Of a stretch of DNA of 20,000 bases, positions 5,019 to 19,839 are shown piece by piece; within the stretch, counting starts at the first letter, position 1; every line of letters starts with the position of its first letter. The stretch is from positions 56,414-76,413 of IMG/VR virus record IMGVR_UViG_3300042465_005830. One strand, 5' to 3'. The notes under the pieces were generated by a model. That model did not search any database, was not told where the DNA came from, and worked only from the letters and a program-made list of their open reading frames with translations. This stretch comes from an uncultured virus (IMG/VR IMGVR_UViG_3300042465_005830) (lineage: Duplodnaviria > Heunggongvirae > Uroviricota > Caudoviricetes). A program made the translations under genes and the position numbers.

Positions 5019-5210
5019 ATGGCAGGACTATTTGACATGATGGATATGGCCATCGCAGATGAATTAGGAGTTGATGTAGAAGTATACATTGACATAATTG
5101 AAAAATGTACTGAAGAAGAAGCAAACTTTATTATTCTAGCTATTCTAGAAGAAGATACTAACAATATAGAAAAAGCAAAAGAAATGTTTAATAAGTATTT
5201 GAATGAATAA
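5019..5210 (+). CDS. hypothetical acidic protein
   Basis: 63-aa ORF overlapping the thyA start. Confidence 0.65.
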   Translation: MAGLFDMMDMAIADELGVDVEVYIDIIEKCTEEEANFIILAILEEDTNNIEKAKEMFNKYLNE

Positions 5211-6357
5211 ACTAGATAAACAATACACAGACTTACTCCAGACAATACTAGAACATGGTGTTGATAAGAAAGATAGAACAGGTACAGGAACAAAATCAAT
5301 CTTCGGTTATACTATCAGACATAACATGAAGGATGGTTTTCCTTTGCTTACAACTAAGAAAATGCCATTCAAAACAATTGTAACTGAACTGTTATGGTTT
5401 TTACAGGGTAGTACTAATATAAAATATTTGGTCGATAATAATTGCCATATTTGGGATGGTGATGCCTTTAAAAATTATGTGAACACATACAAAGGAAACT
5501 TTCCAATGGGTATGGAAGAGTTTATTGAAACTATTAAAACAAATGATAAGTTTGCTGAAAGATGGGGTAATTTAGGACCAATCTACGGTAAACAATGGAG
5601 AGGTTGGAACTCAATAGATAACTCTGATTTTGATATGAGGATGAATATATATGAAGTAGACCAAATCCGTAGACTTATCGCAGACCTTACCAACAATCCA
5701 GACTCAAGACGAATGATGGTTAATGCTTGGAATGTTGGAGAATTAGATCAAATGGTACTTCCACCTTGTCATTATGGATTTCAAGTTTATACAAGAGAGT
5801 TGAGTCACGAAGAAAGGTATAATGAATATAATATTAAATTTAAAGATAGATGTACCGCAGATTGTTACACTAAAGAAGATTTTGACAGTAAAGGAATACC
5901 AACCAGAGCAATCTCTTTAATGTGGAATCAACGTTCAGTAGATACATTCTTAGGTTTACCATTCAACATTGCTTCTTATGGATTATTATTGATGATGTTA
6001 GCAGATGAAGTAAATATGGTTCCTGATCAATTGATTGGTAATTTAGGAGATGTTCATTTGTATTCAAATCATATTGAACAAGCCAAAGAACAAATTGGGA
6101 GAGATTTAACTAATGAAGAGAGGTATAATATATGGTTTAGTAACAATTATGAAACGGGTATGGAAAGATTTTTTAACCCAAATGAATTACCTGACTTTGA
6201 TAATGAATATTACAAACCAACACCAACAAGAACAAGAGAACCTTATCCACTACCAACAGTTCATGTTAGAGATGGAATATATTGTTCATCAATAGAAGAT
6301 GTATTGTTATTTAATTATCAATCACATCCAGCAATTAAAGCACCTTTAAGCAATTAG
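5203..6357 (+). CDS. thyA: thymidylate synthase (with insertions)
   Basis: DRTGTGT, FPLLTTKK, ELLWFL, LGPIYGKQWR, PDSRR, LPPCH, QRSVDTFLGLPFNIASY and HLYSNH motifs. Confidence 0.97.
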   Translation: MNKLDKQYTDLLQTILEHGVDKKDRTGTGTKSIFGYTIRHNMKDGFPLLTTKKMPFKTIVTELLWFLQGSTNIKYLVDNNCHIWDGDAFKNYVNTYKGNFPMGMEEFIETIKTNDKFAERWGNLGPIYGKQWRGWNSIDNSDFDMRMNIYEVDQIRRLIADLTNNPDSRRMMVNAWNVGELDQMVLPPCHYGFQVYTRELSHEERYNEYNIKFKDRCTADCYTKEDFDSKGIPTRAISLMWNQRSVDTFLGLPFNIASYGLLLMMLADEVNMVPDQLIGNLGDVHLYSNHIEQAKEQIGRDLTNEERYNIWFSNNYETGMERFFNPNELPDFDNEYYKPTPTRTREPYPLPTVHVRDGIYCSSIEDVLLFNYQSHPAIKAPLSN

Positions 6358-7332: not shown

Positions 7333-8451
7333 ATGAATAATAAATTTACATTCCACGTATTAGGACTTCCTCATACAATCACTAATAGAGAATTTGTAGC
7401 ATGTGCTTATACACAAAAAGCTTGGAAATTCTGTAAGATGATGGGAGAGAGAGGGCATACTATATACCATTACGGACATGAGGAGAGCGACGCTCCATAT
7501 GCGGAAAACGTAACAGTTATTACCAATAAGGTATGGAAAAAGGTATATGGTACTCACGACTATAAATCTAAATTCTTTAAGTACAATGTAGAGGATGAAG
7601 CCTATCAAACCTTCTATAAAAATGCTATAGAGGAAATAGGAAAGAGAAAACAGAAGAATGACTTCATACTTCCATTCTGGGGATCAGGAGTACGTCCAGT
7701 ATGTGATGGACATCCAGATTTAATAACTGTTGAACCAGGAATAGGTTACGCCGGAGGTCATTGGGCCAATTGGAAGGTATTTGAATCTTATGCAATCTAT
7801 CATGCATACTACGGACTGATGGGAGTGAATTATTGCGATATGAAAAACTATGAAGTAGTAATTCCAAACTATTTTGATCTTTCTGATTTCGAATTTAGCG
7901 ATAAAAAAGAAGACTACTTCTTATATTTAGGAAGAGTCTTTGATGGAAAAGGAGTTAATATAGCAATCCAGGTTACTGAACACTTAGGTTATAAATTAAA
8001 GATAGCAGGACAGATTGACGCTGATGGACCATATAAGGATGGAATCTTTCCTCCTCATGTAGAGTTTGTAGGGTATGCTGGTACTGAGAAGAGAAAAAAG
8101 TTAATGAAGAATGCAAAAGGATGCTTCTTACCTTCACAATATGTTGAACCATTTGGAGGAGTGCAAATAGAAAACCTTCTATCAGGAACACCTACCATCA
8201 CTTCAGACTGGGGAGCATTTGCAGAGAATAATATAAACGGAGTAACTGGCTATAGATGTAGAACGTTTGACGATTATTTAAAAGCAACTATAAAAGTCAA
8301 TAACGGAGAAATAGATTATAAGACTTGTAGAGAGTATGGAGAAAAGTTCTCATTAGAGAATGTAGCTCCTATGTATGAGAAATATTTTCAAGATGTTATG
8401 AACGTATATGAAGGAGATGGATGGTATCAAACAGACATTCCAAAAGTATAA
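7333..8451 (+). CDS. GT-B fold glycosyltransferase (GT4-like)
   Basis: YLGRVFDGKG and PSQYVEPFGGVQIENLLSGTPTITSDWGAFAE (E-x7-E nucleotide-sugar motif). Confidence 0.9.
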   Translation: MNNKFTFHVLGLPHTITNREFVACAYTQKAWKFCKMMGERGHTIYHYGHEESDAPYAENVTVITNKVWKKVYGTHDYKSKFFKYNVEDEAYQTFYKNAIEEIGKRKQKNDFILPFWGSGVRPVCDGHPDLITVEPGIGYAGGHWANWKVFESYAIYHAYYGLMGVNYCDMKNYEVVIPNYFDLSDFEFSDKKEDYFLYLGRVFDGKGVNIAIQVTEHLGYKLKIAGQIDADGPYKDGIFPPHVEFVGYAGTEKRKKLMKNAKGCFLPSQYVEPFGGVQIENLLSGTPTITSDWGAFAENNINGVTGYRCRTFDDYLKATIKVNNGEIDYKTCREYGEKFSLENVAPMYEKYFQDVMNVYEGDGWYQTDIPKV

Positions 8452-8463
8452 AACTTTAGTAAG

Positions 8464-8494
8464 TTGGATCATAAAAAGATATTTCTTATATTTA
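8464..8494 (+). promoter_or_regulatory. Bacteroidota-type promoter P5 (queD/queE transcript)
   Basis: TTG(8464-8466)-N20-TATATTTA(8487-8494). Confidence 0.78.
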
Positions 8495-8509
8495 TTAACA
8501 TATAACAAC

Positions 8510-8536
8510 AGTGTCGTAGCACCACTTTAAAAACAC
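8510..8536 (+). ncRNA. class I preQ1 riboswitch-like aptamer (copy 1)
   Basis: AGUG-UCGUAGCAC-CACU-UUAAAAACAC: P1 stem, UCGYAG loop ending in the specificity C, and AAAAAC tail; located in the 5' UTR of the queD/queE transcript. Confidence 0.75.
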
Positions 8537-8541
8537 ACCTT

Positions 8542-8865
8542 ATGGCAACATATTTTAAGAAGCCCTCCATAGAGAGAGCAGAACAATCGGTTATAATGGA
8601 TAGAGTTCTAGAACAAAAAAAGAAAGAACTTTCACCTGAGGATTTCAAAACCTATACAAACTTTACAACTCAGCAAGAACTACTTGAAGAAGCAGCTAGA
8701 AGAAATCTATTAGCAATTCCAGATCCAAAATTACATCAAACAATTTCATTTATTAAATCCGGTATAAGAATACTCGGATACTTCCTACTACCTTTTAATC
8801 TTCTAATAGGAGCCGGAGTATTAATTTTAAGTGAAATAGTTGGTATTTACGAAGAATTAGTTTAA
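8542..8865 (+). CDS. hypothetical protein with C-terminal hydrophobic hairpin
   Basis: 107 aa; C-terminal ISFIKSGIRILGYFLLPFNLLIGAGVLILSEIVGIYEELV; first gene behind aptamer copy 1. Confidence 0.75.
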   Translation: MATYFKKPSIERAEQSVIMDRVLEQKKKELSPEDFKTYTNFTTQQELLEEAARRNLLAIPDPKLHQTISFIKSGIRILGYFLLPFNLLIGAGVLILSEIVGIYEELV

Positions 8866-8874
8866 ATTAGAGTT

Positions 8875-9024
8875 ATGAGACAGGTAAACGATCACGTAAA
8901 AGAAGCTTTAGGAATAAAGCCTAAAAAGAGATTTAAGAAAGACTACACAAAAGCATTTGTATGGATCCTACTAGGAGCTATAACAGTTGCTATATGGACA
9001 ACAATTTACAATTTAATATTTTAA
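8875..9024 (+). CDS. small single-TM protein (49 aa, not in ORF track)
   Basis: MRQVNDHVKEALGIKPKKRFKKDYTKAFVWILLGAITVAIWTTIYNLIF*; fills the gap before queD. Confidence 0.65.
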   Translation: MRQVNDHVKEALGIKPKKRFKKDYTKAFVWILLGAITVAIWTTIYNLIF

Positions 9025-9027
9025 CAA

Positions 9028-9489
9028 ATGAAATTTCAATCAACAAAAGTCTTTGATGGATACTCAACAGTATTTCGTCAATGGAGAGCAGAAGGTACTC
9101 ATTGCAGGTTCCTACACGGTTATGGTATTTCTTTCAAAATTACTTTTGAAGGAGATCTAGACGAAAGAAACTGGGTATGGGACTTTGGAGGAATGAAGAG
9201 AGCTAAAAACACTATTGATGGTATGCCTCCTAAAGCATGGATGGACCATATGTTCGACCATACTTACATCATTGCAAAAGATGATCCATTCTTACCAAAA
9301 GCATTAGAGATGCACAACGAAGAAATAATCCAACTAAGAATAATTCCAGCTACAGGAGCAGAACAATTCGCTAAATTTATCTATGATAAAGTATCTGAAT
9401 TTATACAAATAGAAACAGAAGGTAGAGTAAGAGTAGTGAGTGTAGAATTTAAAGAACATAACAAAAACTCAGCGATATATGGAGAGTAA
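9028..9489 (+). CDS. queD: 6-carboxy-5,6,7,8-tetrahydropterin synthase (PTPS/QueD family)
   Basis: HCRFLHGY, WDFGGMK, FDHT and TGAEQFA (T-fold PTPS motifs); adjacent to queE. Confidence 0.88.
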   Translation: MKFQSTKVFDGYSTVFRQWRAEGTHCRFLHGYGISFKITFEGDLDERNWVWDFGGMKRAKNTIDGMPPKAWMDHMFDHTYIIAKDDPFLPKALEMHNEEIIQLRIIPATGAEQFAKFIYDKVSEFIQIETEGRVRVVSVEFKEHNKNSAIYGE

Positions 9490-9688
9490 AATTAAACTAT
9501 CAGAAGAAGAAGCAGAACAATTATTCGGAGAAATTGATAATCAAGGATTTGGATATTGGGTTGAGCATTATGGATATAAAGGAGAAGAAGATCCGGAATT
9601 AGTTCAACTATGTAAAGAAGCTAGAGCAGCTATGGAAAAGTTAAGAGAGCATATCGATGCTATTTGGGAACATTACGATATCGGATAG
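9479..9688 (+). CDS. hypothetical acidic protein
   Basis: 69-aa ORF overlapping the end of queD. Confidence 0.65.
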   Translation: MESKIKLSEEEAEQLFGEIDNQGFGYWVEHYGYKGEEDPELVQLCKEARAAMEKLREHIDAIWEHYDIG

Positions 9689-9689
9689 T

Positions 9690-9821
9690 ATGGTAGCAAA
9701 ACCTAATTTAACAATGGAAGAGTTCCACAAATACTTACAGGATGTAATAGACTCTAAATTAAATCTAAGACAGAAAGTAGTAGCGGTAGAAATGTATATA
9801 AAACAAATAACAGGTAGATGA
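9690..9821 (+). CDS. hypothetical protein (43 aa, not in ORF track)
   Basis: MVAKPNLTMEEFHKYLQDVIDSKLNLRQKVVAVEMYIKQITGR*; ATGA overlap with queE. Confidence 0.6.
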   Translation: MVAKPNLTMEEFHKYLQDVIDSKLNLRQKVVAVEMYIKQITGR

Positions 9822-10591
9822 AAAGAATAGAAGATTATAACAAAACACTTCCAATTGTAGAGCTTTATACAGCTGTACAATCAGAAGGAAGTAGAGCAGG
9901 CTATCCAACAGTAGTAATCAGAACAACAGGCTGTACTCACAGATGTTGGTTTGGTGAAGGTGGATGGTGTGATTCTTGGTACACAAGTATTCATCCTGAA
10001 AAAGGACATATTAGTTTCCAAGACATTATCAACATGTACGATAAGAATCCTCACATCACAGAGATGATGCTAACAGGAGGATCACCAACAATGCATCCAG
10101 CATTAGTAAATGAATTAACACATTTTGCACATGAAAGAAATATTTTCATTACAATTGAGACCGAAGGAAGTCATTTTCTTGAAACGGATTACCCAATTAA
10201 TCTATTATCAATCTCCCCTAAGTTCAGTAATTCTGTCCCTAAGGTTGGCGTACTCACACCTCAAGGAGACGTTACAGATGAAAGAATGATCAAACAGCAT
10301 AACAAGTTAAGATTAAACTACGATGCAATTTCTAAATCAATCTCGTATCATTCCGATTACCACTTAAAGCCAGTATGGGATGGAGAGGATCAAGAAGCGT
10401 TAGCAGAAATTATGGCTTGTATTAAAATGCTAGACATACCTCAAGACAAAGTATGGTTCATGCCAGCTGGAGATTCAAGAGAAGCTTTATTCAAATCATA
10501 TCCAAAAATGTTTGATTGGGTGAGAGATAATGGTTACAGATTGACTTGGAGACCTCACATCATTGCATTTGAGGACAAAAGAGAAGTGTAG
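9818..10591 (+). CDS. queE: 7-carboxy-7-deazaguanine synthase (radical SAM)
   Basis: ELYTAVQSEG..G.P.V.IRT.GC, CTHRC...WCDS, LTGGSP, IETEG, SISPK and final RPH motifs. Confidence 0.93.
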   Translation: MKRIEDYNKTLPIVELYTAVQSEGSRAGYPTVVIRTTGCTHRCWFGEGGWCDSWYTSIHPEKGHISFQDIINMYDKNPHITEMMLTGGSPTMHPALVNELTHFAHERNIFITIETEGSHFLETDYPINLLSISPKFSNSVPKVGVLTPQGDVTDERMIKQHNKLRLNYDAISKSISYHSDYHLKPVWDGEDQEALAEIMACIKMLDIPQDKVWFMPAGDSREALFKSYPKMFDWVRDNGYRLTWRPHIIAFEDKREV

Positions 10592-10592
10592 G

Positions 10593-10778
10593 ATGAGACC
10601 AGCAACTACAGTAGAAACATTGTACACTCTTCATACACTATGGAGAAAGGGTCAATTACAAACAGCACAGGTAAAGCACTTAATTAAGACTAGCTGCTTC
10701 CTAGAACTAACAAGTATAACAAACGGAGGCATCACAGCACAATCACCAGACGGAAAAATTAAATATTCAATTAAATAA
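10593..10778 (+). CDS. hypothetical protein
   Basis: Probable start ATG 10593 directly after the queE stop. Confidence 0.55.
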   Translation: MRPATTVETLYTLHTLWRKGQLQTAQVKHLIKTSCFLELTSITNGGITAQSPDGKIKYSIK

Positions 10779-10789
10779 AAAATAAAGTT

Positions 10790-11089
10790 ATGACATTAAA
10801 AGATCTAATCGATTTAGCAGGAGACAGAGAATTATCAAAAGCATATCCAAAAGCAGATGGCCTTTACATCTGGGACTATAAGTTACAGTTTAACGGTACT
10901 AAAAATTTTGAATTAGAGTTAGTACTAATACCAAGCGACTCAGGTAAGACAGGATTTAAAGATAAAGTATCTATCGAAGAATTAGTAAACTACGTACTGG
11001 AGTCAACAGATCCAGAAGTATCAGGAGATGAAATTATCTCACAACTACCAATAGTAGACGTGGAAGGAATTACAATTGCAAAGGTATAA
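10790..11089 (+). CDS. hypothetical protein
   Basis: 99-aa ORF with AAAGTT-ATG context. Confidence 0.7.
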   Translation: MTLKDLIDLAGDRELSKAYPKADGLYIWDYKLQFNGTKNFELELVLIPSDSGKTGFKDKVSIEELVNYVLESTDPEVSGDEIISQLPIVDVEGITIAKV

Positions 11090-11090
11090 T

Positions 11091-11675
11091 ATGAAGAAGT
11101 TTTTATTATTACTCTTACTTCCGTTAGTAGGGTTTGGACAGTTAAGAGATAGCGTTTATGTAAAGACAGACATCTACGAAGTGATGTATTCAGAGACACT
11201 AGAACAACCATTGTGGGTAAAGTACCAAGTACTATGTACAGGTGCTGGAGCATCTAGAAAAGGAATGGATTTTTATACAGATAAAACAATTCATACTTCA
11301 GATGCAAAAGATTATGTAAATAATGTTTACGACAAAGGACATTGTGCTCCAGCGGCAGACTTTAACTGCACTAGAGAAATGTTACTTAAAACATTTTCAT
11401 ACTTAAACTGTACCCTACAGAATGAAAGACTGAACAGAGTTCATTGGAGATTATTAGAAGACTATGAAAGACTTCTAGCCTTTTCAGAAGGACCAGTCAA
11501 TGTAGAAATAAAAATAGTATTTGACAAAGTACCTAAAAGAGTACCTGCAGGTGCAGCTATACCAACAGCTTTCTATAAAATTATCAAAACTAAAAATAAA
11601 ACACTTGCTTTCTATTTCTTAAATGAAGCACCAAAGAAAGCAACGTTTGTAGATTATCAAGTAAAACTTAACTAG
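11091..11675 (+). CDS. secreted DNA/RNA non-specific endonuclease (NucA/Serratia beta-beta-alpha-Me family)
   Basis: Signal peptide MKKFLLLLLLPLVGFG (start ATG 11091); PLWVKY, YDKGHCAPAADF, TFSYLNCTLQ...LN..W..LE and IPTAFYKII motifs. Confidence 0.9.
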   Translation: MKKFLLLLLLPLVGFGQLRDSVYVKTDIYEVMYSETLEQPLWVKYQVLCTGAGASRKGMDFYTDKTIHTSDAKDYVNNVYDKGHCAPAADFNCTREMLLKTFSYLNCTLQNERLNRVHWRLLEDYERLLAFSEGPVNVEIKIVFDKVPKRVPAGAAIPTAFYKIIKTKNKTLAFYFLNEAPKKATFVDYQVKLN

Positions 11676-11677
11676 TT

Positions 11678-12073
11678 ATGGCACTAAAAATAGGAAACAA
11701 AGTTTATTTAAGCTGGGATGATATTAATATCTTAGTAGAAGATTTATGTCAGACAATAGCTTCATCAGGAGCAGAAATTAAATCGATAACAGGTATTCAA
11801 AGAGGAGGGTTAATACCAGCAGTAATGATCTCCCACAAGCTCCATATACCTTTCGTTAGTAGAATAAATAAAGATACTCTTGTTGTAGATGACATTTGTG
11901 ATACAGGAGAGACGTTAAAAAAGACTATTGGAATGTATACTGCAACGCTTCATTACAAACCAACAGCAATATTTACCCCAGACTTCTATTCAAAAGAAGT
12001 AGGAACAGAGTGGATTGTTTACCCTTGGGAAAGAAATGATTCAGAAACTATTCAAGATTATTTGAAAAAATAG
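11678..12073 (+). CDS. type I phosphoribosyltransferase, Gpt (xanthine-guanine PRTase)-like
   Basis: YLSWDD, GIQRGGLIPA, PRPP loop VVDDICDTGET and WIVYPWE. Confidence 0.9.
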   Translation: MALKIGNKVYLSWDDINILVEDLCQTIASSGAEIKSITGIQRGGLIPAVMISHKLHIPFVSRINKDTLVVDDICDTGETLKKTIGMYTATLHYKPTAIFTPDFYSKEVGTEWIVYPWERNDSETIQDYLKK

Positions 12074-12104
12074 TTGCAGGATAGAATAAAAAATGTTATA
12101 TTAA
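12074..12104 (+). promoter_or_regulatory. Bacteroidota-type promoter P6 (folE transcript)
   Basis: TTG(12074-12076)-N20-TATATTAA(12097-12104). Confidence 0.75.
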
Positions 12105-12111
12105 ATAAAAC

Positions 12112-12138
12112 GGAGTCGTAGAACCTCCATAAAAACAA
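12112..12138 (+). ncRNA. class I preQ1 riboswitch-like aptamer (copy 2)
   Basis: GGAG-UCGUAGAAC-CUCC-AUAAAAACAA, ending 6 nt before the folE ATG; closely parallels the T. tengcongensis aptamer as recalled (CUGGG-UCGCAGUAAC-CCCAG-UUAACAAAACAAG). Confidence 0.82.
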
Positions 12139-12144
12139 TCTTAT

Positions 12145-12855
12145 ATGTCAAATAAAAAATTTATCGACGGTACAGAATTAGTACAAGCCGGATTCGCTAA
12201 TGGAATCTCAACACAATTAGCAAAAAAACAATTAATAGATGGTCCAGAAGCAAGACTAACTGAAGAAGAAAAGCAAGCTATTATCGAGAATGCTGCAGTA
12301 GCTTTTGGGCAATTCCTTTCAGCTTTAGGGTGTGATTGGAGTAATGATCCAAATTCATCTGATACTCCTAAGAGAGTTGCAAAAGCATATGTAAATGATT
12401 TATGGGCAGGTCGATTTGAACCAATGACTAAGATCACAGCATTCCCTTCTGATGGGTATGACGGAATAGTATTCGAAGGAAACATTCCAATTACTTCAAT
12501 GTGCTCTCATCATCACCAAACAATCACAGGAAGAGTTCATATCGGATATGTTCCTTCAGCAGATGGAAAAGTAGTTGGACTTTCTAAATTGAATAGAATT
12601 GTAGAGCAATTTGCTCGTAGAGGAGCTATCCAAGAACAATTAACAGTTGCAATTCATAATGCAGTAGATAAGATCTGTGAAGGTAATCTAGGAGTAGCAG
12701 TTATGATTGAAGCAGGACATAATTGTGTAAGCTGTAGAGGTATTAAGCATCAAGGTGCTTCAATGAAGACAGCAAAATTAACAGGATGTTTCTTAGACGA
12801 AGCATCAGCAAGAGCAGAATTTTACGAATTTGTAAAAGGATATAGTTGTAAATAA
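12145..12855 (+). CDS. folE: GTP cyclohydrolase I
   Basis: TPKRVAK, SMCSHH, GLSKLNRIV, QEQLT and HNCVSCRG motifs. Confidence 0.95.
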   Translation: MSNKKFIDGTELVQAGFANGISTQLAKKQLIDGPEARLTEEEKQAIIENAAVAFGQFLSALGCDWSNDPNSSDTPKRVAKAYVNDLWAGRFEPMTKITAFPSDGYDGIVFEGNIPITSMCSHHHQTITGRVHIGYVPSADGKVVGLSKLNRIVEQFARRGAIQEQLTVAIHNAVDKICEGNLGVAVMIEAGHNCVSCRGIKHQGASMKTAKLTGCFLDEASARAEFYEFVKGYSCK

Positions 12856-12867
12856 AAACCAAACATT

Positions 12868-13065
12868 ATGAATTATTGGCAAGTAACTGTGCAATTGGAG
12901 CACGAAAATGACCGAGGTCGTATCCAAAGAGTAAAAGAACTTTATTTAGTAGATGCAATTTCAGCAACAGATGCTGAAGCAAAAATCTATAAAGAGTTTG
13001 AAGGAGAGTCTAACTTTACAGTAGTAGGAGTTAACCAATCTAAAATCCTAAAAGTAATTGAATAA
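12868..13065 (+). CDS. DUF4494-like protein
   Basis: KELYLVDAISATDAEAKI resembles the Bacteroidota DUF4494 N-terminal motif (E.YLVDA.SFTEAEARI). Confidence 0.65.
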   Translation: MNYWQVTVQLEHENDRGRIQRVKELYLVDAISATDAEAKIYKEFEGESNFTVVGVNQSKILKVIE

Positions 13066-13066
13066 T

Positions 13067-13095
13067 AAGTTGGCTCTTCGGAGCCAATTTCTTAT
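13067..13095 (+). terminator. intrinsic terminator with cUUCGg tetraloop, overlapping promoter P7
   Basis: TTGGCTC-TTCG-GAGCCAA perfect 7-bp stem followed by TTTCTTAT, immediately after the stop at 13065. Confidence 0.8.
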
Positions 13096-13100
13096 ATTAA
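13070..13100 (+). promoter_or_regulatory. Bacteroidota-type promoter P7
   Basis: TTG(13070-13072)-N20-TATATTAA(13093-13100). Confidence 0.72.
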
Positions 13101-13117
13101 TAAAAAAGTAAAAAGAT

Positions 13118-13630
13118 ATGATTACAGATCCAAAAGTACCTTTTATTGACGAAGTAGAAGAATTTAACGCCGTAATGGGCAAACCTAATAACTATGAACC
13201 AACTATCCCCGAAAGAAAAGAATGGGAGTTTGTATACAATTTCATCCTTGAGGAATTGGAAGAATATAGAGCAGCTTGCGAAGCAGGAGACATCGTTGAG
13301 GTTCTGGATGCTTTGTGCGATATTACTTATGTTGCCACTGGGAACGGTACTATGTTACATGGCCTTAAGGATAAGATATGGCCAGCATATCAAGAAGTTC
13401 AAGCTTCAAATCTATCAAAAGCTTGCCAAACAGAAGAAGACGCTAAAGCAACTGTCATTCAGAGATCGAGTGAGCAAGGTGAGGAGTGTCATTACGAAAA
13501 AGTTGGAGAGTATTACGTTGTTTATAGAACAAGAGATAGAAAAGTAATGAAGAATGTAAACTACTTCCGACCAGATCTTTCTCAGTTTTTTACTCAAGAG
13601 CAGTTAAGTAAATTTAATAGAAGTAAATAA
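13118..13630 (+). CDS. MazG-like all-alpha NTP pyrophosphohydrolase (PRA-PH/DR2231-like)
   Basis: ILEELEEY...EVLDALCDITYV..G, EVQASNLSK and KVMK...Y..PDL motifs. Confidence 0.88.
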   Translation: MITDPKVPFIDEVEEFNAVMGKPNNYEPTIPERKEWEFVYNFILEELEEYRAACEAGDIVEVLDALCDITYVATGNGTMLHGLKDKIWPAYQEVQASNLSKACQTEEDAKATVIQRSSEQGEECHYEKVGEYYVVYRTRDRKVMKNVNYFRPDLSQFFTQEQLSKFNRSK

Positions 13631-13833
13631 TGCAAGCAGCACTAGACCATTTAGAAAAGCATAAAGTGTTTATTGATACTTTAGGTATAGATATGATTCC
13701 TTTATCAGAGGCTTATAAAGCAGTTGAGAAATCTATTGATAGTCAGCTGGCAGAAGTTATGGAAACATTACAGACACAGCTAGGAGGGTTAGTAGAAGAT
13801 TTAGAAGATATAACACCAGAAAATAATGATTAA
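13630..13833 (+). CDS. hypothetical acidic protein
   Basis: 67-aa ORF coupled to both neighbours. Confidence 0.65.
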   Translation: MQAALDHLEKHKVFIDTLGIDMIPLSEAYKAVEKSIDSQLAEVMETLQTQLGGLVEDLEDITPENND

Positions 13834-14620
13834 GATAGCACACGAATCACCGAAGAGTATATTTAAAGAAGTACAAAAGCATACTGATTACGACTATGCA
13901 CTTGTTCACTTATTTGAAGAAGATCCAGAATACTTAAAACAGTTTCAAGAAGCTAAAGAAGCAGGTAGAGAAATTATTTTAGATAATTCTATATTTGAAT
14001 TAGAAGAAGCTTTTGATGCAGAGAAGTTTGCAGGATGGGTATTAGAATTAAAGCCAGATTGGTATATAGTTCCAGATGCTTTAGAAGATGCAAAGAAGAC
14101 TGTTAAGCAGATGACTGAATGGAATAACAAATATAAAAATCTTCCAGGAAAGAAAATAGGAGTTGTTCAAGGAAAGACTTATAGTCAAATTAAGACTTGT
14201 TATGAGTATATGGATAAGATTGCAAATGTAGATATGATTGCAATTTCATTCGACTATTCGTACTATACTAATACTATTTCTCATCCTAACAAGTATGTTA
14301 GCTGGATGTTAGGAAGGGTTAAGCTACTAGGAGATCTGTTGAGAGACGGTGTAATAAACGAAGAGAAGAAGCATCACTTATTAGGATGTGGATTACCTCA
14401 AGAGTTTTCTTTTTACTCAGATTATAAATGGATCTATTCTTTAGATACTTCTAATCCAGTTGTACATGGTATAAAAGGAATTGAGTATAGAGCAGACGGA
14501 TTATGGTCAAAAGAGTCTCAAAAGTTATTTGAACTAATCAATTACGTACCAGAAGATACGAATATGATTCTTCAGAACATTCACAAATTCAGATGGTTTG
14601 CAAATGGACGCAAAGTATAA
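13826..14620 (+). CDS. TGT-fold 7-deazaguanine enzyme, DpdA3-like
   Basis: IILDNSIFE (variant of the TGT/DpdA DSG motif), IVPD, IGVVQG, HHLLG and SLDTS match the order of TGT barrel motifs; located within a que cluster. Confidence 0.72.
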   Translation: MIKIAHESPKSIFKEVQKHTDYDYALVHLFEEDPEYLKQFQEAKEAGREIILDNSIFELEEAFDAEKFAGWVLELKPDWYIVPDALEDAKKTVKQMTEWNNKYKNLPGKKIGVVQGKTYSQIKTCYEYMDKIANVDMIAISFDYSYYTNTISHPNKYVSWMLGRVKLLGDLLRDGVINEEKKHHLLGCGLPQEFSFYSDYKWIYSLDTSNPVVHGIKGIEYRADGLWSKESQKLFELINYVPEDTNMILQNIHKFRWFANGRKV

Positions 14621-14783
14621 AGTAGGAGAGATGGTTATTATTAATCTCGATAATGAGATTATAGATGCTGAAGTATTTGGAATAGTAAATAACACTTCAG
14701 GAAAACCTTCGTACAGTTTAAGAGTAAAAGGTAATTTTATCTTTGTAGATGAAAGTAGAATAATAAGTATATCACATGAGTAG
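14604..14783 (+). CDS. small SH3/KOW-like hypothetical protein
   Basis: MDAKYKVGEMV...AEV...YSLRV...FVDE beta-rich pattern; ATG 14604. Confidence 0.55.
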   Translation: MDAKYKVGEMVIINLDNEIIDAEVFGIVNNTSGKPSYSLRVKGNFIFVDESRIISISHE

Positions 14784-15303
14784 GCCTTGGATAGCATTCT
14801 TTAGTCAAACAGGATCAGAGATCGTAGAAGTGTCAAAGCTTTTAGGAAGATGGCCTGATATGATAGTAACAAACGAAAGACCAGAACATCTTAGAAAGAT
14901 TCATCCGGCTTTAGAATCAAAGCATTTAGTCTTTGTAGAGAATAAACCTACAGAAGAAGAATTGTCAATGATACTTGGCCAATATGGAAATCCTTTAGTA
15001 ACTCTTCATGGATGGTTGAGAATTATGCCTCCATATATCTGTAATCGATTTGAAATCTATAACGGACATCCAGGACTTATAACTGAATATCCAGAACTAA
15101 AAGGAAAAGATCCTCAGCAAAAAGCTTTCGACCTAGGATTAGAATCCTCAGGATGTGTTATTCATAGAGTAACAGAAGGAGTTGATGAAGGAGAGATACT
15201 CCGTAGTAGAAAAGTTTCTATAAAAGGGTTGGAGATTGGAGAATTATTTCATATATTACATAGTATATCAGTAAGTCTTTGGGTAGACTTCTTAAAAAAT
15301 TAG
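14776..15303 (+). CDS. PurN-like formyltransferase (DpdN-like, predicted preQ1 N-formyltransferase)
   Basis: FFSQTGSE, LHGWLRIM, NGHPGL and SGCVIHRVTEGVDEG parallel PurN (SGxGSN, LAGFMRIL, NIHPSLL, GxTVHxVxxxxDxG). Confidence 0.85.
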   Translation: MSRPWIAFFSQTGSEIVEVSKLLGRWPDMIVTNERPEHLRKIHPALESKHLVFVENKPTEEELSMILGQYGNPLVTLHGWLRIMPPYICNRFEIYNGHPGLITEYPELKGKDPQQKAFDLGLESSGCVIHRVTEGVDEGEILRSRKVSIKGLEIGELFHILHSISVSLWVDFLKN

Positions 15304-15305
15304 TT

Positions 15306-15830
15306 ATGAAAAGAATAGCATTAGTAGGAGCATCATCAGTAGGAAAGACTACTGTATACGAATTATTAAAAGATAGACTTCCAGAGTTTAATTTTATAAA
15401 CGAATCAACAAGAACGGTTGGTAAATATGGATTTCCTATTAACGAAGATGGAACTTCTGAAACACAGCTTGCTATTTCTTCTTTTCATTTAGAGGCTTTA
15501 CTACAGCCAGGAGATGTAATACTTGACAGATGTTATTTAGACCTAGTAGTATATTCTACTTATATGGAAAACATTTCTGATAGTACATACAATTATATCT
15601 TAGATACTTGGATGAGAGTTAAGGATCAATATACACATTTTATTTATTTCCCTATTGAATTTGCTTCTGTAGATGATGGAGTAAGAAGTGTTAACGAAGG
15701 ATGGAGAGATGCAATCGATAAGCAATTTGAGAATAACTTAAAAGCAATTAAAGCATTAGGAGGAGATTACTTAACAGTATCAGGAAGTCCTAAACAAAGA
15801 GTTGAACAAATATTAAACTATATAAAATAA
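15306..15830 (+). CDS. P-loop nucleoside/nucleotide kinase-like protein (NadR/AAA_28-like)
   Basis: Start ATG 15306; Walker A GASSVGKT, DRCYLD and DDGVR motifs. Confidence 0.8.
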   Translation: MKRIALVGASSVGKTTVYELLKDRLPEFNFINESTRTVGKYGFPINEDGTSETQLAISSFHLEALLQPGDVILDRCYLDLVVYSTYMENISDSTYNYILDTWMRVKDQYTHFIYFPIEFASVDDGVRSVNEGWRDAIDKQFENNLKAIKALGGDYLTVSGSPKQRVEQILNYIK

Positions 15831-15831
15831 C

Positions 15832-16755
15832 ATGGCAGAATTAAATCAAGCAGAAGTAGTAAAGATTGCCGGAAAGCATCTTGGTAAAGTAGGAGGAGAA
15901 GGTTATAAGGATACTTATGATCCAGAATTATTAGTAGAGATTCCTCGTTACTTAAACAGAGAAGCATACGGAATAGACGATAACAACTTACCATTTGTTG
16001 GAGGAGATGTTTGGAATGCATACGAAGTATCAGCAATCACTACAAAAGGACTTCCAGTAGTAGGGATGTTGAAAATTTACTATCCAGCAGATTCAAAACT
16101 TCACGTAGAGTCTAAATCTATCAAATTGTATTTGAATTCATTCAATATGACTCAAATGGGAGATACAGCAGCAGAGTGTATTGCAATTTTAAAAGATAGA
16201 GTAAAGAGAGATTTATCTGAGAAGTTACAAACAAATGTAGAAGTAGAGATGTTTACTTCAGACTTTGGACCAGCATATGCATTTAAAGGATATGCACAAT
16301 TGGATCAAATAGCTAATCTAGATAATATTGAATTTACTTCTTATCATTCAGATGCTACACAATTGGAAACAGAAGAAGTAGATGATGATTTCGAAATTGG
16401 AGTAATCAAAATACAATCAAATCTTTTAAGATCAAATTGTAGAGTAACAAATCAACCAGACTGGGGTGATGTATTTATTCACATTAAACCTAAAGCAGGA
16501 GTTGTTCCTAATTTAGAATCATTAGCAAAATATATTGTAAGTCACAGACAAGTAAGTCACTTCCACGAAGAGATTTGTGAAATGGTTTACATGCACTTAA
16601 GAGAAGCTTACAATCCAGAAGAATTAATGGTAGCTTGTCTTTACACTCGTAGAGGAGGATTAGATATTAATCCAGTAAGAGCTTCACATAAGGAATTAAT
16701 CCCAAGCTTCTTTGCAGATGTAAAATGCAGAATGGAAAAAACATTACGCCAATAA
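15832..16755 (+). CDS. queF: NADPH-dependent preQ0 reductase, bimodular (E. coli YqcD-type)
   Basis: DVWNAYEVS, QueF motif ESKSIKLYLNSF, catalytic LRSNCRVTNQPDWG, FHEEICE and YTRRGGLDINP. Confidence 0.95.
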   Translation: MAELNQAEVVKIAGKHLGKVGGEGYKDTYDPELLVEIPRYLNREAYGIDDNNLPFVGGDVWNAYEVSAITTKGLPVVGMLKIYYPADSKLHVESKSIKLYLNSFNMTQMGDTAAECIAILKDRVKRDLSEKLQTNVEVEMFTSDFGPAYAFKGYAQLDQIANLDNIEFTSYHSDATQLETEEVDDDFEIGVIKIQSNLLRSNCRVTNQPDWGDVFIHIKPKAGVVPNLESLAKYIVSHRQVSHFHEEICEMVYMHLREAYNPEELMVACLYTRRGGLDINPVRASHKELIPSFFADVKCRMEKTLRQ

Positions 16756-17024
16756 TGGAAGCTAATTCAAGACAAGAAGAAGTACTTGAGTTGATTGCAA
16801 GGAGAGTACCGCCAGGTGATAATTGGAAAGGAGAGTGGTATGGATTTCCTCCTGGAGTAATTGAAGGACTAGTACCAACTCTATCGGCTTATATGAGAGC
16901 GACAGAATTTAAAGGAGCTTATAGATTAGAACCTTTAAAAGGAGAGCTCTACGCTATTAAAACACAGACAGTTACTTGGACACCTCCAGAGCCAGAAAAG
17001 TTTGACCTTTACGGGGAATATTAA
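16755..17024 (+). CDS. hypothetical protein
   Basis: Probable start ATG 16755 (TAATG coupling with queF). Confidence 0.65.
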   Translation: MEANSRQEEVLELIARRVPPGDNWKGEWYGFPPGVIEGLVPTLSAYMRATEFKGAYRLEPLKGELYAIKTQTVTWTPPEPEKFDLYGEY

Positions 17025-17027
17025 TAA

Positions 17028-17055
17028 AAAAGAGTTGCTTAACCGCAGCTCTTTT
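17028..17055 (+). terminator. intrinsic terminator overlapping promoter P8
   Basis: AAAAGAGTTGC-TTAACC-GCAGCTCTTTT hairpin with T tract after the stop at 17024. Confidence 0.7.
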
Positions 17056-17065
17056 CGTATCTTTA
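17035..17065 (+). promoter_or_regulatory. Bacteroidota-type promoter P8
   Basis: TTG(17035-17037)-N20-TATCTTTA(17058-17065). Confidence 0.75.
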
Positions 17066-17092
17066 TATTATATAAATTAAAAAAGGTTATGT

Positions 17093-17497
17093 ATGAAAGT
17101 CCATCAAAGTTTTGAAAAGGTTAATACTTTTTCTGCACATGAAGATCCAAACAAGTTAAGATTAGATAACTGGCCTTATAAGTCAAGACAGACTAGAAAA
17201 GCTGTATACTTACTTGTACAGAAAGGAAAGGTTATTAAAGTAGGGCAGTCTATAGATTTCTATAGAAGAATGGATAATTACAAGTACAGACAAGGGTATG
17301 CTTGTGCAGTACTTACTCCTGTCTTAAATAAAATGATAGTAGATAATGGTTCTGATATAGAACTTTATGTAAGGTTTTATGACCAAGCTCTTACCAGAGT
17401 AGACGAATGGGGGGAAGAAGTACTACAAACAGATTGTGTTTTCGCAGCCGAGAAAAAATGGAAAGAGTATTATAGTTCTACAATAATGTTTAAGTAA
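17093..17497 (+). CDS. GIY-YIG-like endonuclease (possible free-standing homing endonuclease)
   Basis: AVYLL...IKVGQS..F.RR..NY and a downstream AAEK Glu follow the GIY-YIG pattern. Confidence 0.6.
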   Translation: MKVHQSFEKVNTFSAHEDPNKLRLDNWPYKSRQTRKAVYLLVQKGKVIKVGQSIDFYRRMDNYKYRQGYACAVLTPVLNKMIVDNGSDIELYVRFYDQALTRVDEWGEEVLQTDCVFAAEKKWKEYYSSTIMFK

Positions 17498-17505
17498 AAT
17501 CAGTT

Positions 17506-19839
17506 ATGCAAATAGAAAAAAAATATTACCACGTCGACAGTATTGAAACTGTCAATTTACTTATCGAACATATTAATCAGTCGGAGGTTATTTCCTACGA
17601 TACTGAGACAACTGGACTAAATGTAAGAAGGGATCAAGTTGTAGGATGGTCTGTATCAGGAGAAGAAGGAATAGGATTCTACCTTCCTACTCAGAAGTGG
17701 AATACAGAAACAAATCAATTAGAGGAATGTACTATCGGCGGAAAAGGAGCACATGACATTACTAAAAAGTTACTCCCGCTGCTTAAGGGTAAGAAACTGG
17801 TAATGCACAATGCTTCTTTTGACTGCCGTATTACTAAGAACTATTACGGAGTATCTTTATTGGAAGATCTATGGGTAGATACAGCTCTCCTTGTTCATAC
17901 AGTACAGGAAGAAGGAGCCGGCATGGGAGTATTTGGACTAAAAGCATTAGCAATCTCAATTCAGAAAGAGATAGGTCTGAATGTAGAAGAAGCAGCCAAC
18001 AAAGAGCAGGTAGAGCTAAAAGAATCTATCAAAGCAAATGGAGGATCAACTACAAAAGATCTTTACGAAATCTTTAAAGCAGATATGGCAATCCTCTCTA
18101 AGTATGCTGCTGCCGATACGGATTTAACTTTAAGGGTTTGTAATCACTTCCTAAAAGTTTTAAAAGAAGAAGGACTAGAGAAATTCTTCTTTGAAGAAGA
18201 AGTAATGCCTCTTTACAAAGAAGTAACTGTTCCAATGGAAGAGTTAGGAGTAGCTTTAGATCTTCCGTTACTAGAAAAGACTAAAGAAGATATTACAAAC
18301 GATTTAGAATCGAATAAGAGAATTGTAATCAATAGCATCTTAGCTATTCCAGAAGCAAAAGAATGGGTAGTTGATACAGCACTATATACTTACCCTCCTT
18401 CACATAAAGGTAACTGGGCACAGAATTTAATCATGCTTCATTCCCTACCATTAGAAAGAAGTGAGAAGACTGGAAAGTATTCATTAACTAAAAAAGCTAT
18501 TGAAGAGTTAGAAGAGAGTAACGTAAAACAATTCTTACTGACAGGAGAGTTAGATCTACTAGATGAAATGGAAGTTGTTAGAATCTCTATGTCGATGTGG
18601 AAGGAAGAGAATGAAGGAGAGTATTTGAATATTCAGTCTAAGAAACACTTAGGTGAGATTGCATTCAAGTATATGGGAATCAAACCTCTTACTCAGACTA
18701 AGAAAGGTCAAGATCAATTCGATATGGATATGTTAGAGGAGTTATCTAAGACATACGAATGGGCAAATAATCTTAGAACGTATAATAAGTTATTGAAGAT
18801 TAAATCAACTTACATCGATAGATTCCTGGATGGTCAAGAGGATGGAAGATACTACTTCTACTATAAACAAAACGGTACAGTATCAGGACGATATGGTTCA
18901 GATGCTCAGCAATTACCAAAGCCTAAAGAAGAAGGAGAAGATACTCCACTACTTGTAAAATATACAAATGTAGTAAGAGAGTTCTTAATTGCAGGAGAAG
19001 GAAGAAAGTTAATCGATAATGACTATACTTCTCTAGAACCTCACTGCTTTGCTTCTGTAGCAGGTGATATTAATCTTCAAGAGATCTTTAACAACGGATG
19101 GGACTTTTATTCTACAGTTGCTATTAGAACTGAGAAGCTTGATCAGGATAGAGTAAAATATCCAGACGGTGTTTCACCTGATACTAAATCTCCTATCTTC
19201 TTAAAGAAACTAGATCCAGTAAAAAGAAATCAAGCTAAGGCTTATTCATTAGGAATTGCATACGGAATGGAAGCATATGCTCTAGCAAAAACTCTAGACA
19301 TATCTCAAAAAGAAGCTGATACTTTAGTAGCAGGTTACTTAGATGGATTTCCTCAATTAAAAGAATGGAGAATTAATTCTAGAGAGCAAGTAAAGAAGCA
19401 TGGCTTTATTCAAAATAAAGTAGGACGAATCAGACACTTACCTAAAGTAAAACTTATCTTTGAAAAGTTTGGAGATCAAGTATTGGATTGGAGATTCAGA
19501 AAGAGTCTTGAAGAGCAGTATGGAAAAGATCCTGTAATGCAGATGTATAGAGATTACCGAAATGGATTAAACAACTGCTTGAACTACCAGCTACAGTCAC
19601 TAGCAGCGGCGGTTGTAAACAGAGCAGCAATTCAGATCAATAGAAAAGCAAAAGAGTTAGGAATAGATGCTAGAGTACAAGCTCAGATTCATGACCAGTT
19701 GATCATAAATGTAAGAGAAGATCAAGCAGAAATGTTCATGCCTTACGTTCAAGAGTTGATGGAACTAACAACACAGCTTCCAGGAGTAACTCTAAAAGCA
19801 CCACCACAAATAGCAAATAACTTTGCAGAAGGTCATTAG
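17506..19839 (+). CDS. polA: family A DNA polymerase with 3'-5' exonuclease, no 5'-3' exonuclease domain
   Basis: ExoI DTETTG, ExoII HNASFD, ExoIII YAAAD; TVSGR; motif A DYTSLE; motif B RNQAKAYSLGIAYG; motif C IHDQ. Confidence 0.95.
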   Translation: MQIEKKYYHVDSIETVNLLIEHINQSEVISYDTETTGLNVRRDQVVGWSVSGEEGIGFYLPTQKWNTETNQLEECTIGGKGAHDITKKLLPLLKGKKLVMHNASFDCRITKNYYGVSLLEDLWVDTALLVHTVQEEGAGMGVFGLKALAISIQKEIGLNVEEAANKEQVELKESIKANGGSTTKDLYEIFKADMAILSKYAAADTDLTLRVCNHFLKVLKEEGLEKFFFEEEVMPLYKEVTVPMEELGVALDLPLLEKTKEDITNDLESNKRIVINSILAIPEAKEWVVDTALYTYPPSHKGNWAQNLIMLHSLPLERSEKTGKYSLTKKAIEELEESNVKQFLLTGELDLLDEMEVVRISMSMWKEENEGEYLNIQSKKHLGEIAFKYMGIKPLTQTKKGQDQFDMDMLEELSKTYEWANNLRTYNKLLKIKSTYIDRFLDGQEDGRYYFYYKQNGTVSGRYGSDAQQLPKPKEEGEDTPLLVKYTNVVREFLIAGEGRKLIDNDYTSLEPHCFASVAGDINLQEIFNNGWDFYSTVAIRTEKLDQDRVKYPDGVSPDTKSPIFLKKLDPVKRNQAKAYSLGIAYGMEAYALAKTLDISQKEADTLVAGYLDGFPQLKEWRINSREQVKKHGFIQNKVGRIRHLPKVKLIFEKFGDQVLDWRFRKSLEEQYGKDPVMQMYRDYRNGLNNCLNYQLQSLAAAVVNRAAIQINRKAKELGIDARVQAQIHDQLIINVREDQAEMFMPYVQELMELTTQLPGVTLKAPPQIANNFAEGH

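Follow-up and report, generated by a model that had tools for sequence, protein, structure and literature searches.

We analysed a 20,000-nucleotide stretch of DNA from an uncultured virus of the Caudoviricetes (hereafter the window), which forms the final 20 kb (record positions 56414-76413; G000:C1) of a 76,413-base IMG/VR virus record estimated to be 47% complete. The window carries a gene cluster for replacing guanine in DNA by formylated dPreQ1 (fdPreQ1), which includes DpdA3, a minimal transglycosylase of the tRNA-guanine transglycosylase (TGT) fold, and the formyltransferase DpdN. By its sequence, the locus comes from a Flavobacterium phage of immuto type and is that phage's cluster for replacing guanine with fdPreQ1; the system is known, and this locus is one more copy of it. 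Comparison among phages revealed that a small kinase adjoins DpdA3 across phage groups, a linkage that hints at exchange of the base before replication. The GC content of the window is 31-36%, and its long open reading frames (ORFs) all lie on the plus strand. Family scans with Pfam, PHROGs and NCBIfam covered 37 ORFs in the whole window, 20 of them between 8542 and 19839. The genes of the cluster are listed below, with E-values following the family names.

9028-9489, plus strand: QueD, 6-carboxytetrahydropterin synthase (PTPS PF01242, 6e-15; phrog_2389 QueD-like, 1e-40)
9818-10591, plus strand: QueE, 7-carboxy-7-deazaguanine synthase, a radical SAM enzyme (PF04055, 2.5e-7; phrog_2076 QueE-like, 1.8e-53)
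11076-11675, plus strand: non-specific DNA/RNA endonuclease (Endonuclease_NS PF01223, 7.4e-25)
11678-12073, plus strand: short XPRT/Gpt-like purine phosphoribosyltransferase (PRTase) (Pribosyltran PF00156, 8.7e-8; xanthine PRTase NF006613, 2e-15, below cut-off)
12145-12855, plus strand: FolE, GTP cyclohydrolase I (PF01227, 8.6e-45)
13118-13630, plus strand: MazG-like all-alpha NTP pyrophosphohydrolase (PRA-PH PF01503, 9.3e-10; phrog_671, 4.1e-28)
13630-13833, plus strand: conserved 67-aa ORF between MazG and DpdA3 (own hidden Markov model (HMM) matches 99/130 loci)
13826-14620, plus strand: DpdA3, minimal TGT-fold transglycosylase, 264 aa (phrog_19058, 6.8e-54; 96.2% identical to immuto DpdA)
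14776-15303, plus strand: DpdN, PurN-like formyltransferase (Formyl_trans_N PF00551, 1.9e-13)
15279-15830, plus strand: Kin, P-loop nucleoside or nucleotide kinase resembling the ribosylnicotinamide kinase of NadR (NadR-RNK) and deoxynucleoside kinases (dNKs) (AAA_28 PF13521, 5.8e-13)
15832-16755, plus strand: bimodular QueF, preQ0 to preQ1 reductase (QueF_N PF14819, 1.1e-33, plus QueF PF14489, 2.8e-20)
16725-17024, plus strand: conserved 99-aa ORF after QueF (own HMM matches 65/130 loci)
17506-19839, plus strand: family A DNA polymerase (PolA) with 3'-5' exonuclease (PF00476, 2.5e-56; PF01612, 1.9e-12)
Upstream of the window: QueC (G000:C1:45191-45853, some 10.5 kb ahead of where the window begins)

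All genes that a preliminary description had named here (folE, queD, queE, queF, a TGT-fold protein, a PurN-like protein, a PRTase, a MazG-like protein, a kinase and PolA) were recovered by the family scans. It had called the pathway complete, which holds for the genome and not for the window, QueC lying outside the latter. It had also placed the start of the locus at 8464, where we found no gene edge; the first ORF begins at 8542 and the first pathway gene at 9028. By homology, FolE, QueD, QueE and QueC together with QueF are predicted to make the free base preQ1 from GTP. QueF matched TIGR03138 at 3.9e-76 with 256.2 bits, under the equivalog cut-off of 293.45, and both of its domains, QueF_N and QueF, are present. 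A DUF4494 fragment is listed after FolE in the cluster. Neither the 67-aa nor the 99-aa ORF had a family match in the Pfam, PHROGs and NCBIfam scans.

A megablast search with 8464-19839 matched four records, all of them immuto-group Flavobacterium phages, with 87% of the query aligned at a nucleotide identity of 89.7%. In immuto, the annotation shows the gene order of the window and names DpdA, phosphoribosylglycinamide formyltransferase, thymidylate kinase, NTP pyrophosphohydrolase and phosphoribosyltransferase, PolA being annotated there too. DpdN and Kin are 97-98% identical to their immuto counterparts. The window has an additional gene, Endonuclease_NS, between QueE and the PRTase, a place where immuto has none. 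In immuto virion DNA the dG peak was absent and fdPreQ1 reached 345,000 per 10^6 nucleotides (Cui 2023, PMC10516641), in agreement with the background given in the preliminary description (immuto with DpdA3, DpdN and complete fdPreQ1 replacement). Given the 89.7% identity to immuto, guanine is probably replaced completely in the virion DNA of this phage as well. Measured complete replacement is reported for immuto, CP220 (dADG) and phiST (dDG) alone (Cui 2023, PMC10516641). The preliminary description had further stated that completeness suggested synthesis at the level of the nucleotide pool; the text of that report draws no such conclusion and instead concludes that the exchange is post-replicative (Cui 2023, PMC10516641).

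Next, we characterised DpdA3 itself. It shares about 42% identity with CP220 gp056, and the same level with proteins in 14 Campylobacter phage records; this homology to the immuto and CP220 proteins places it in the DpdA3 subfamily. No Pfam or NCBIfam model matched it, the TGT family PF01702 included, and no Cys/His cluster of a Zn site is conserved in an alignment of 43 DpdA3 sequences. DpdA3 is thus named here as a fold relative of the tRNA-guanine transglycosylases and not as a member of PF01702. An AlphaFold (AF2) model computed from the 43-sequence alignment is a (beta/alpha)8 barrel with a pLDDT of 97.1. When this model was used in Foldseek, tRNA-guanine transglycosylases filled every one of the top 50 places (best E 4.1e-8, TMq 0.60). 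In a VIA search, which is independent of Foldseek, ArcTGT (Z 18.0), the DNA preQ0 insertase DpdA 7UI4 (17.6) and bacterial TGT (16.5) ranked first, by a margin that is only modest because generic TIM barrels follow from Z 15.6.

Three aspartates, D53, D84 and D207, are invariant in the 43 sequences. A profile alignment (E 0.17) sets HLLG...SIDTSNP of DpdA3 opposite HLLG...SIDSTTP of bacterial DpdA, and D207 would therefore be the counterpart of the DpdA nucleophile Asp256 (Gedara 2023, PMC10164549). D53 and D84, matched by their order along the barrel, fit the roles of the general acid/base and the base-recognising aspartate (DpdA Asp95 and Asp130). Homology thus points to DpdA3 as a TGT-fold transglycosylase keeping its catalytic aspartates. 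Its barrel is bare, with 57 residues after the nucleophile D207. In bacterial DpdA, the insertion Ins8 (128 residues, 30% of the protein) begins at the nucleophile and is placed at the DNA (Gedara 2023, PMC10164549).

The DpdA3 family is large: of 3380 candidates in 90% clusters, 3175 match with an E of up to 0.001, clustering at 50% identity leaves 1571 representatives, and relatives are encoded in at least 557 IMG/VR stretches. A search for related loci with the distant homologue P0249 returned none. Some family members are fused to DpdN (P0179 and P0180) or to QueF (P0271-P0273), and these fusions tie base synthesis, exchange and formylation together in a way that is compatible with exchange either before or after replication. 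Other members carry long extensions without a family match (P0123, P0274 and P0225; a 317-aa N-terminal extension and C-terminal ones of about 225 and 160 aa).

DpdN begins 156 nt after DpdA3. Its closest solved relatives are the glycinamide ribonucleotide (GAR) transformylases (PurN; 4e-14 to 1e-12), as against about 1e-6 for sugar-nucleotide formyltransferases and 5e-6 for Fmt. The catalytic set N96, H98 and D137 is invariant in 20 sequences. The PF00551 fold, this Asn-His-Asp set and its encoding together with DpdA and with FolE to QueF identify the protein as DpdN, and by homology it is a predicted PurN-type formyltransferase with an intact active site. An SQTGSE loop, also invariant, lies opposite SGTGSN of human GART and PurN, a loop which presumably binds the 5'-phosphate of GAR. 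As the aligned loop would then bind a 5'-phosphate, a mononucleotide substrate for DpdN is plausible, and we treat this as a lead. Both DpdA3 and DpdN received their names in Cui 2023 (PMC10516641), where the function of DpdN is a prediction.

The gene behind DpdN encodes the kinase Kin, whose true start is likely the ATG at 15306. It is 32% identical to CP220 gp057 (E 3e-19). In profile searches, Kin matched NadR ribosylnicotinamide kinase (9.3e-6 and 7e-5) and dNKs (7.3e-5 and 5.5e-3) ahead of thymidylate kinases (0.05), and its model (pLDDT 90.2) gave Foldseek TMq values of 0.72 for NadR, 0.66-0.70 for dNKs and 0.58-0.66 for thymidylate kinases. Because profile and fold both best match NadR-RNK and dNKs, we class Kin as a small-molecule nucleoside or nucleotide kinase. 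The main text of Cui 2023 (PMC10516641) contains the word 'kinase' 0 times. A homologue of Kin occurs in Streptomyces phage Samisti12 (NC_042012.1 68733-69302, L134), the Streptomyces homologues being about 30% identical to Kin; in Samisti12 a MazG-like gene lies about 5 kb from it. The MazG-like protein of the window keeps the acidic metal motif as invariant residues E45, E46, E49, D64 and D68.

We then asked which neighbours travel with DpdA3. For this purpose, 127 IMG/VR loci with DpdA3 of 51-100% identity were fetched, and an iterative HMM built for each window gene was run on all ORFs. A well-flanked set, in which DpdA3 has 6 kb or more of DNA to either side, comprised 72 loci, corresponding to 39 clusters at 90% DpdA3 identity. 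Most of the metagenomic loci come from a single clade, and their counts should therefore not be read as independent events. The genes recovered in the well-flanked set were:

Kin: 72/72 loci and 39/39 clusters, at a median of 568 nt from the DpdA3 end
QueF: 72/72 loci
FolE: 71/72 loci
DpdN: 71/72 loci
QueE: 68/72 loci
QueD: 66/72 loci
PolA: 64/72 loci
PRTase: 63/72 loci
MazG: 62/72 loci
Endonuclease: 42/72 loci

Dozens of related contigs repeat the gene order of the window, and the genes are thus not grouped by accident. Among the loci of greatest divergence (51-60% identity), which sit in other phage backbones, the remaining core is FolE-DpdA3-DpdN-Kin-QueF. Endonuclease_NS takes varying positions within the cluster of related contigs, for example after the kinase, and behaves like a mobile or shuffled accessory gene; possibly, it could supply host-derived deoxynucleoside monophosphates (dNMPs). 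Other phage lineages are more informative than this clade because synteny by descent is broken there. Their arrangements around DpdA3 are:

CP220 (dADG): HD+AAA_33 protein (gp055), DpdA3, AAA_28 kinase
Campylobacter phage CC_R7: QueC, DpdA3-like, AAA_28 kinase, DNA polymerase
Bacillus phage BSTP12 and Weizmannia phage Youna2: FolE, other genes, 183-187-aa P-loop protein with weak dNK similarity, DpdA3-like, PolA
Aeromonas phage Ahp1: DpdA3-like, T4 gp1-type dNMP kinase (PF21448, 1.7e-17), DCD-like
Chryseobacterium phage MA9V-3: DCD-like, other genes, AAA_18/AAA_33 kinase, DpdA3-like
phiST (dDG): FolE, MazG CGPG_00068 (PF03819, 4.8e-6), DpdL, AAA_18 P-loop protein CGPG_00066 (9.4e-7), DpdA3 (profile E 7.9e-21)

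A kinase thus adjoins DpdA3 in seven further phage groups and comes from four kinase families, and such a neighbour is present in each of the three phages for which complete replacement was measured. CGPG_00066 of phiST (HQ634192.1 46381-46860, L158), an AAA_18 P-loop protein of 159 aa, carries the loop GEICSGKD and is encoded 1 nt from DpdA3; the MA9V-3 kinase has a near-identical loop, GEICSGKT, at the same position. Cui 2023 (PMC10516641) lists CGPG_00066 as an unknown for which other deazaguanine phages have no homologue.

To examine the linkage without reference to families, we scored ORFs of 120-280 aa with a Walker A motif in the first 60 residues and within 2.5 kb of the transglycosylase gene. 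Such an ORF was present in 91/97 DpdA3 metagenomic loci and in 5/6 of the other DpdA3 phages, Ahp1 being missed with a gp1-like kinase that falls outside the strict Walker A pattern. By contrast, none was present in the DpdA1 control, consisting of phage 9g and 17 mostly 9g-like relatives (0/18), and the background in equal-sized windows of the same contigs, at least 3 kb from DpdA3, was 12/155. These figures describe the loci and are not to be taken as a probability. Enzymes acting on deoxynucleoside triphosphates (dNTPs) also recur in DpdA3 clusters, as hydrolases of three folds: MazG in the window and phiST, HD in CP220 gp055, and DCD/dUTPase-like in Ahp1, MA9V-3 and the diverged locus L116, where the DCD/dUTPase-like gene stands in the cluster in place of MazG.

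The preliminary description had expected the accessory genes to co-occur with DpdA3. This profile bears out the kinase throughout and the dNTP hydrolase often, and it fails for the PRTase and PolA, which are lineage-specific. The PRTase is confined to the immuto-like clade, being absent from CP220, BSTP12 and Youna2 (0/3) and from 9/72 loci, and was rejected as a universal partner of DpdA3. PolA was likewise rejected as a specific partner; it is lost in diverged loci, and a polymerase also stands beside DpdA1 in phage 9g. For these reasons, neither is counted among the specific partners. PolA scored 234 bits with the Pol I model (cut-off 720), 72.3 with the DpoZ model NF038380 (cut-off 500) and 19.8 with NF038381 (cut-off 350). 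Neither immuto nor CP220 encodes guanylate kinase (Gmk) or nucleoside-diphosphate kinase (NDK); both encode a ribonucleotide reductase.

From these observations, we propose that DpdA3 acts on free deoxyguanosine nucleos(t)ides and that the swap precedes replication, a proposal that we hold at even weight for and against. In this scheme, MazG would cleave dGTP to dGMP, keeping guanine out of phage DNA and feeding DpdA3, which would put preQ1 or formyl-preQ1 in the place of guanine at C1' of the free deoxyribos(t)ide. Formylation of the aminomethyl group, on the base or the mononucleotide, would fall to DpdN. The adjacent kinase would phosphorylate the product and so trap a near-isoenergetic exchange. 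Since no Gmk or NDK is encoded, host kinases would complete the triphosphate, and the phage PolA would then polymerise the modified nucleotide. The PRTase may return released guanine to GMP and GTP, which would feed FolE and pull the exchange forward.

Several observations support the pre-replicative proposal. A kinase adjoins DpdA3 across phage groups with different kinase families, Kin belongs to a small-molecule class, and a dNTP-cleaving enzyme of varying fold is often found in the cluster. DpdA3 is without the DNA-proximal Ins8 insertion of DpdA, and the nearest solved relatives of DpdN act on a ribose-5-phosphate substrate. The free ADG nucleoside seen in CP220-infected cells (Cui 2023, PMC10516641) is counted on the same side. 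If correct, the scheme would explain why 100% replacement is reached by DpdA3 phages alone, why these phages retain a kinase beside DpdA3 whatever family it is drawn from, and why the enzyme by itself did not work in E. coli. In earlier literature, a modified-dGTP route 'proposed for Campylobacter phages' was mentioned before DpdA3 was recognised (Hutinet 2019, PMC6884629). A search for literature after Cui 2023 on DpdA3 or fdPreQ1 found none, subscription journals not being covered.

Other observations weigh against this proposal. In the published alternative, DpdA3 swaps guanine for preQ1 in new phage DNA, with DpdN formylating in the DNA or formylating the base beforehand; we give that alternative a substantial minority share of the probability. 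Kinase, MazG, PRTase and PolA would then be ordinary replication and nucleotide-supply genes of an early-gene module, or, in a variant, the P-loop protein would be an ATP-using helper of DNA-level exchange, like DpdB for bacterial DpdA. The authors who measured the modification conclude that it is post-replicative, and propose so for all DpdA subfamilies (Cui 2023, PMC10516641); the characterised TGT and DpdA enzymes in the papers cited here all act on tRNA or DNA, and the catalytic motifs of that group (HLLG, SIDTSNP and the invariant aspartates) are kept in DpdA3, whose fold margin over generic TIM barrels is, moreover, narrow. An ATPase partner is required by bacterial DpdA (Gedara 2023, PMC10164549). 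As DpdA1 of 9g adjoins a DNA polymerase, dpdA genes seem common in replication modules; that the PRTase and PolA are lineage-specific is unfavourable or neutral. An exclusive tie of the kinase family to DpdA3 phages was rejected: of 114 phage records that carry a homologue, 89 belong to Streptomyces phages, and around the kinase of Samisti12, the single one inspected, the annotation shows neither que nor dpdA genes within 7 kb. A DpdA3-kinase fusion was sought and not found among 270 homologues, 5 longer forms, or the extensions of P0123, P0127, P0225, P0251, P0255 and P0274. The motif test failed in 6/97 metagenomic loci, and three short loci (L114, L119 and L123) read DpdA3-DpdN-QueF with no Kin match in the available DNA. 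As for the hydrolase, MazG is missing within 10 kb in 10/72 loci, no dNTPase was recognisable within 6 kb in the diverged locus L105, and none was found around DpdA3 in BSTP12, Youna2 or CC_R7; the MazG-like protein of the window has no significant solved relative (best E 0.25), and dGTP is only its proposed substrate. Exchange in DNA nevertheless assigns no role to a kinase that adjoins DpdA3 in at least seven phage groups, from non-orthologous families, and in 0/18 DpdA1 loci. These partners are all of small-molecule kinase types (NadR-RNK/dNK-like, T4 gp1-like, AAA_18), not ParB-like or motor ATPases, and Ins8 of DpdA is missing from DpdA3. Complete replacement is found only in the DpdA3 group, as against 0.1-30% in other subfamilies, and DpdA3 could not be made active in the authors' E. 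coli DNA assay (Cui 2023, PMC10516641).

A route through the PRTase would likewise be pre-replicative. Here, preQ1 or preQ0 and phosphoribosyl pyrophosphate would give a 7-deazaguanine ribonucleotide, with ToyH of toyocamycin synthesis as an analogue for this step, the kinase would make the diphosphate, and the phage ribonucleotide reductase the deoxy form, leaving DpdA3 merely to mop up residual guanine. A Gpt/XPRT-like PRTase is indeed present in the cluster and in 63/72 related loci, and immuto encodes a ribonucleotide reductase large subunit. This route cannot be general, however, because CP220 has no PRTase and still reaches complete replacement; the gene is absent as well from BSTP12, Youna2 and 9/72 related loci, the best matches of the kinase are nucleoside kinases, and a ribonucleotide pool would presumably feed RNA too. 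We therefore consider it improbable. Phage que genes were first interpreted as a supply of queuosine for host tRNA (Hutinet 2019, PMC6884629), and a TGT-fold protein acting on tRNA would suit the Foldseek matches, the top ones being tRNA TGTs. DpdA3 has neither a Pfam TGT match nor Zn-site cysteines, though, and the near-identical immuto has its guanine fully replaced in virion DNA (Cui 2023, PMC10516641), which makes this reading very improbable. Overall, pre-replicative exchange draws on the kinase linkage, the frequent dNTP hydrolases and the bare barrel, and is set back by a lineage-specific PRTase and PolA and by a kinase family that occurs elsewhere.

The proposed logic resembles the hydroxymethylcytosine (hmC) pathway of T4, which uses gp56 dCTPase, gp42 dCMP hydroxymethylase and gp1 dNMP kinase. 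In T4 as in the proposed scheme, the canonical dNTP is first hydrolysed to a dNMP, modification takes place on this mononucleotide, and the product re-enters the pool through a kinase of its own; Kin, a nucleoside or nucleotide kinase whose gene is linked to that of the modifying enzyme, fits this pattern, and a gp1-type kinase adjoins DpdA3 in Ahp1. The T4 modifying enzyme has a thymidylate-synthase fold, whereas here it would be a TGT-fold base exchanger. The preliminary description had drawn its analogy with the Z-genome system (PurZ/MazZ/DatZ/DpoZ), in which a whole base is replaced in the nucleotide pool and MazG- and HD-type hydrolases deplete a dNTP. That analogy stands in function and not in homology, which is limited to the broad MazG and PolA folds: the polymerase is not of DpoZ type by its score, and scanning the 37 window ORFs for families brought no PurZ-type enzyme to light.

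CP220 and phiST resemble the window in having a DpdA3 homologue, a directly adjacent small P-loop kinase and a dNTP hydrolase in the cluster. Unlike the window, they have no QueF, no DpdN and another end product; the phiST kinase is from another family (AAA_18), and in CP220, which is without the PRTase, the hydrolase is of HD type and forms one protein with an AAA_33 kinase. Bacterial DpdA with its partner DpdB (PDB 7UI4) shares with DpdA3 the TIM-barrel TGT fold and the aligned HLLG and SID(S/T)xxP motifs with the nucleophile Asp. DpdA3, in contrast, is 264 aa long against 413 in the chain, has no Ins8 following the nucleophile, and has a kinase neighbour instead of the ParB-like DpdB. Bacterial DpdA modifies less than 0.1% of G (cited in Cui 2023, PMC10516641).

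Further upstream, the window encodes a lysozyme-type glucosaminidase fragment, a cREC_REC protein, a metallophosphoesterase, a thymidylate synthase and a GT1 glycosyltransferase. The cREC_REC protein (1015-1944, 309 aa), in the phage early region, has a cyclic-phosphate processing receiver domain (4.5e-21). The thymidylate synthase (5203-6357, 384 aa) has about 80 residues beyond the Pfam model, its residues 6-341 matching 258 model positions, and is just 59% identical to the immuto copy despite the approximately 90% identity of the flanks. The GT1 glycosyltransferase (7333-8451) lies directly upstream of the cluster, was seen in 5 of the first 80 related loci, and has no counterpart at that place in immuto.

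The value of the locus is that it sharpens the question of how these phages attain 100% guanine replacement, and the comparative result singles out DpdA3, the kinase and MazG as the proteins of interest. DpdA3 may not modify DNA at all and may instead be the first TGT-fold enzyme to exchange the base of a free deoxyguanosine nucleos(t)ide; with a dGTP-cleaving hydrolase and a dedicated kinase, it would then belong to a widespread modular pathway that writes dADG, dDG, dPreQ1 or fdPreQ1 into whole phage genomes via the polymerase. We see the chances of this as finely balanced. If the swap does take place on free nucleotides, it would represent a new enzymatic activity for the TGT fold and a possible enzymatic source of 7-substituted 7-deaza-dGTPs, and it would join hmC/hmU, Z and dI as the fourth natural way of making DNA with a fully non-canonical base.

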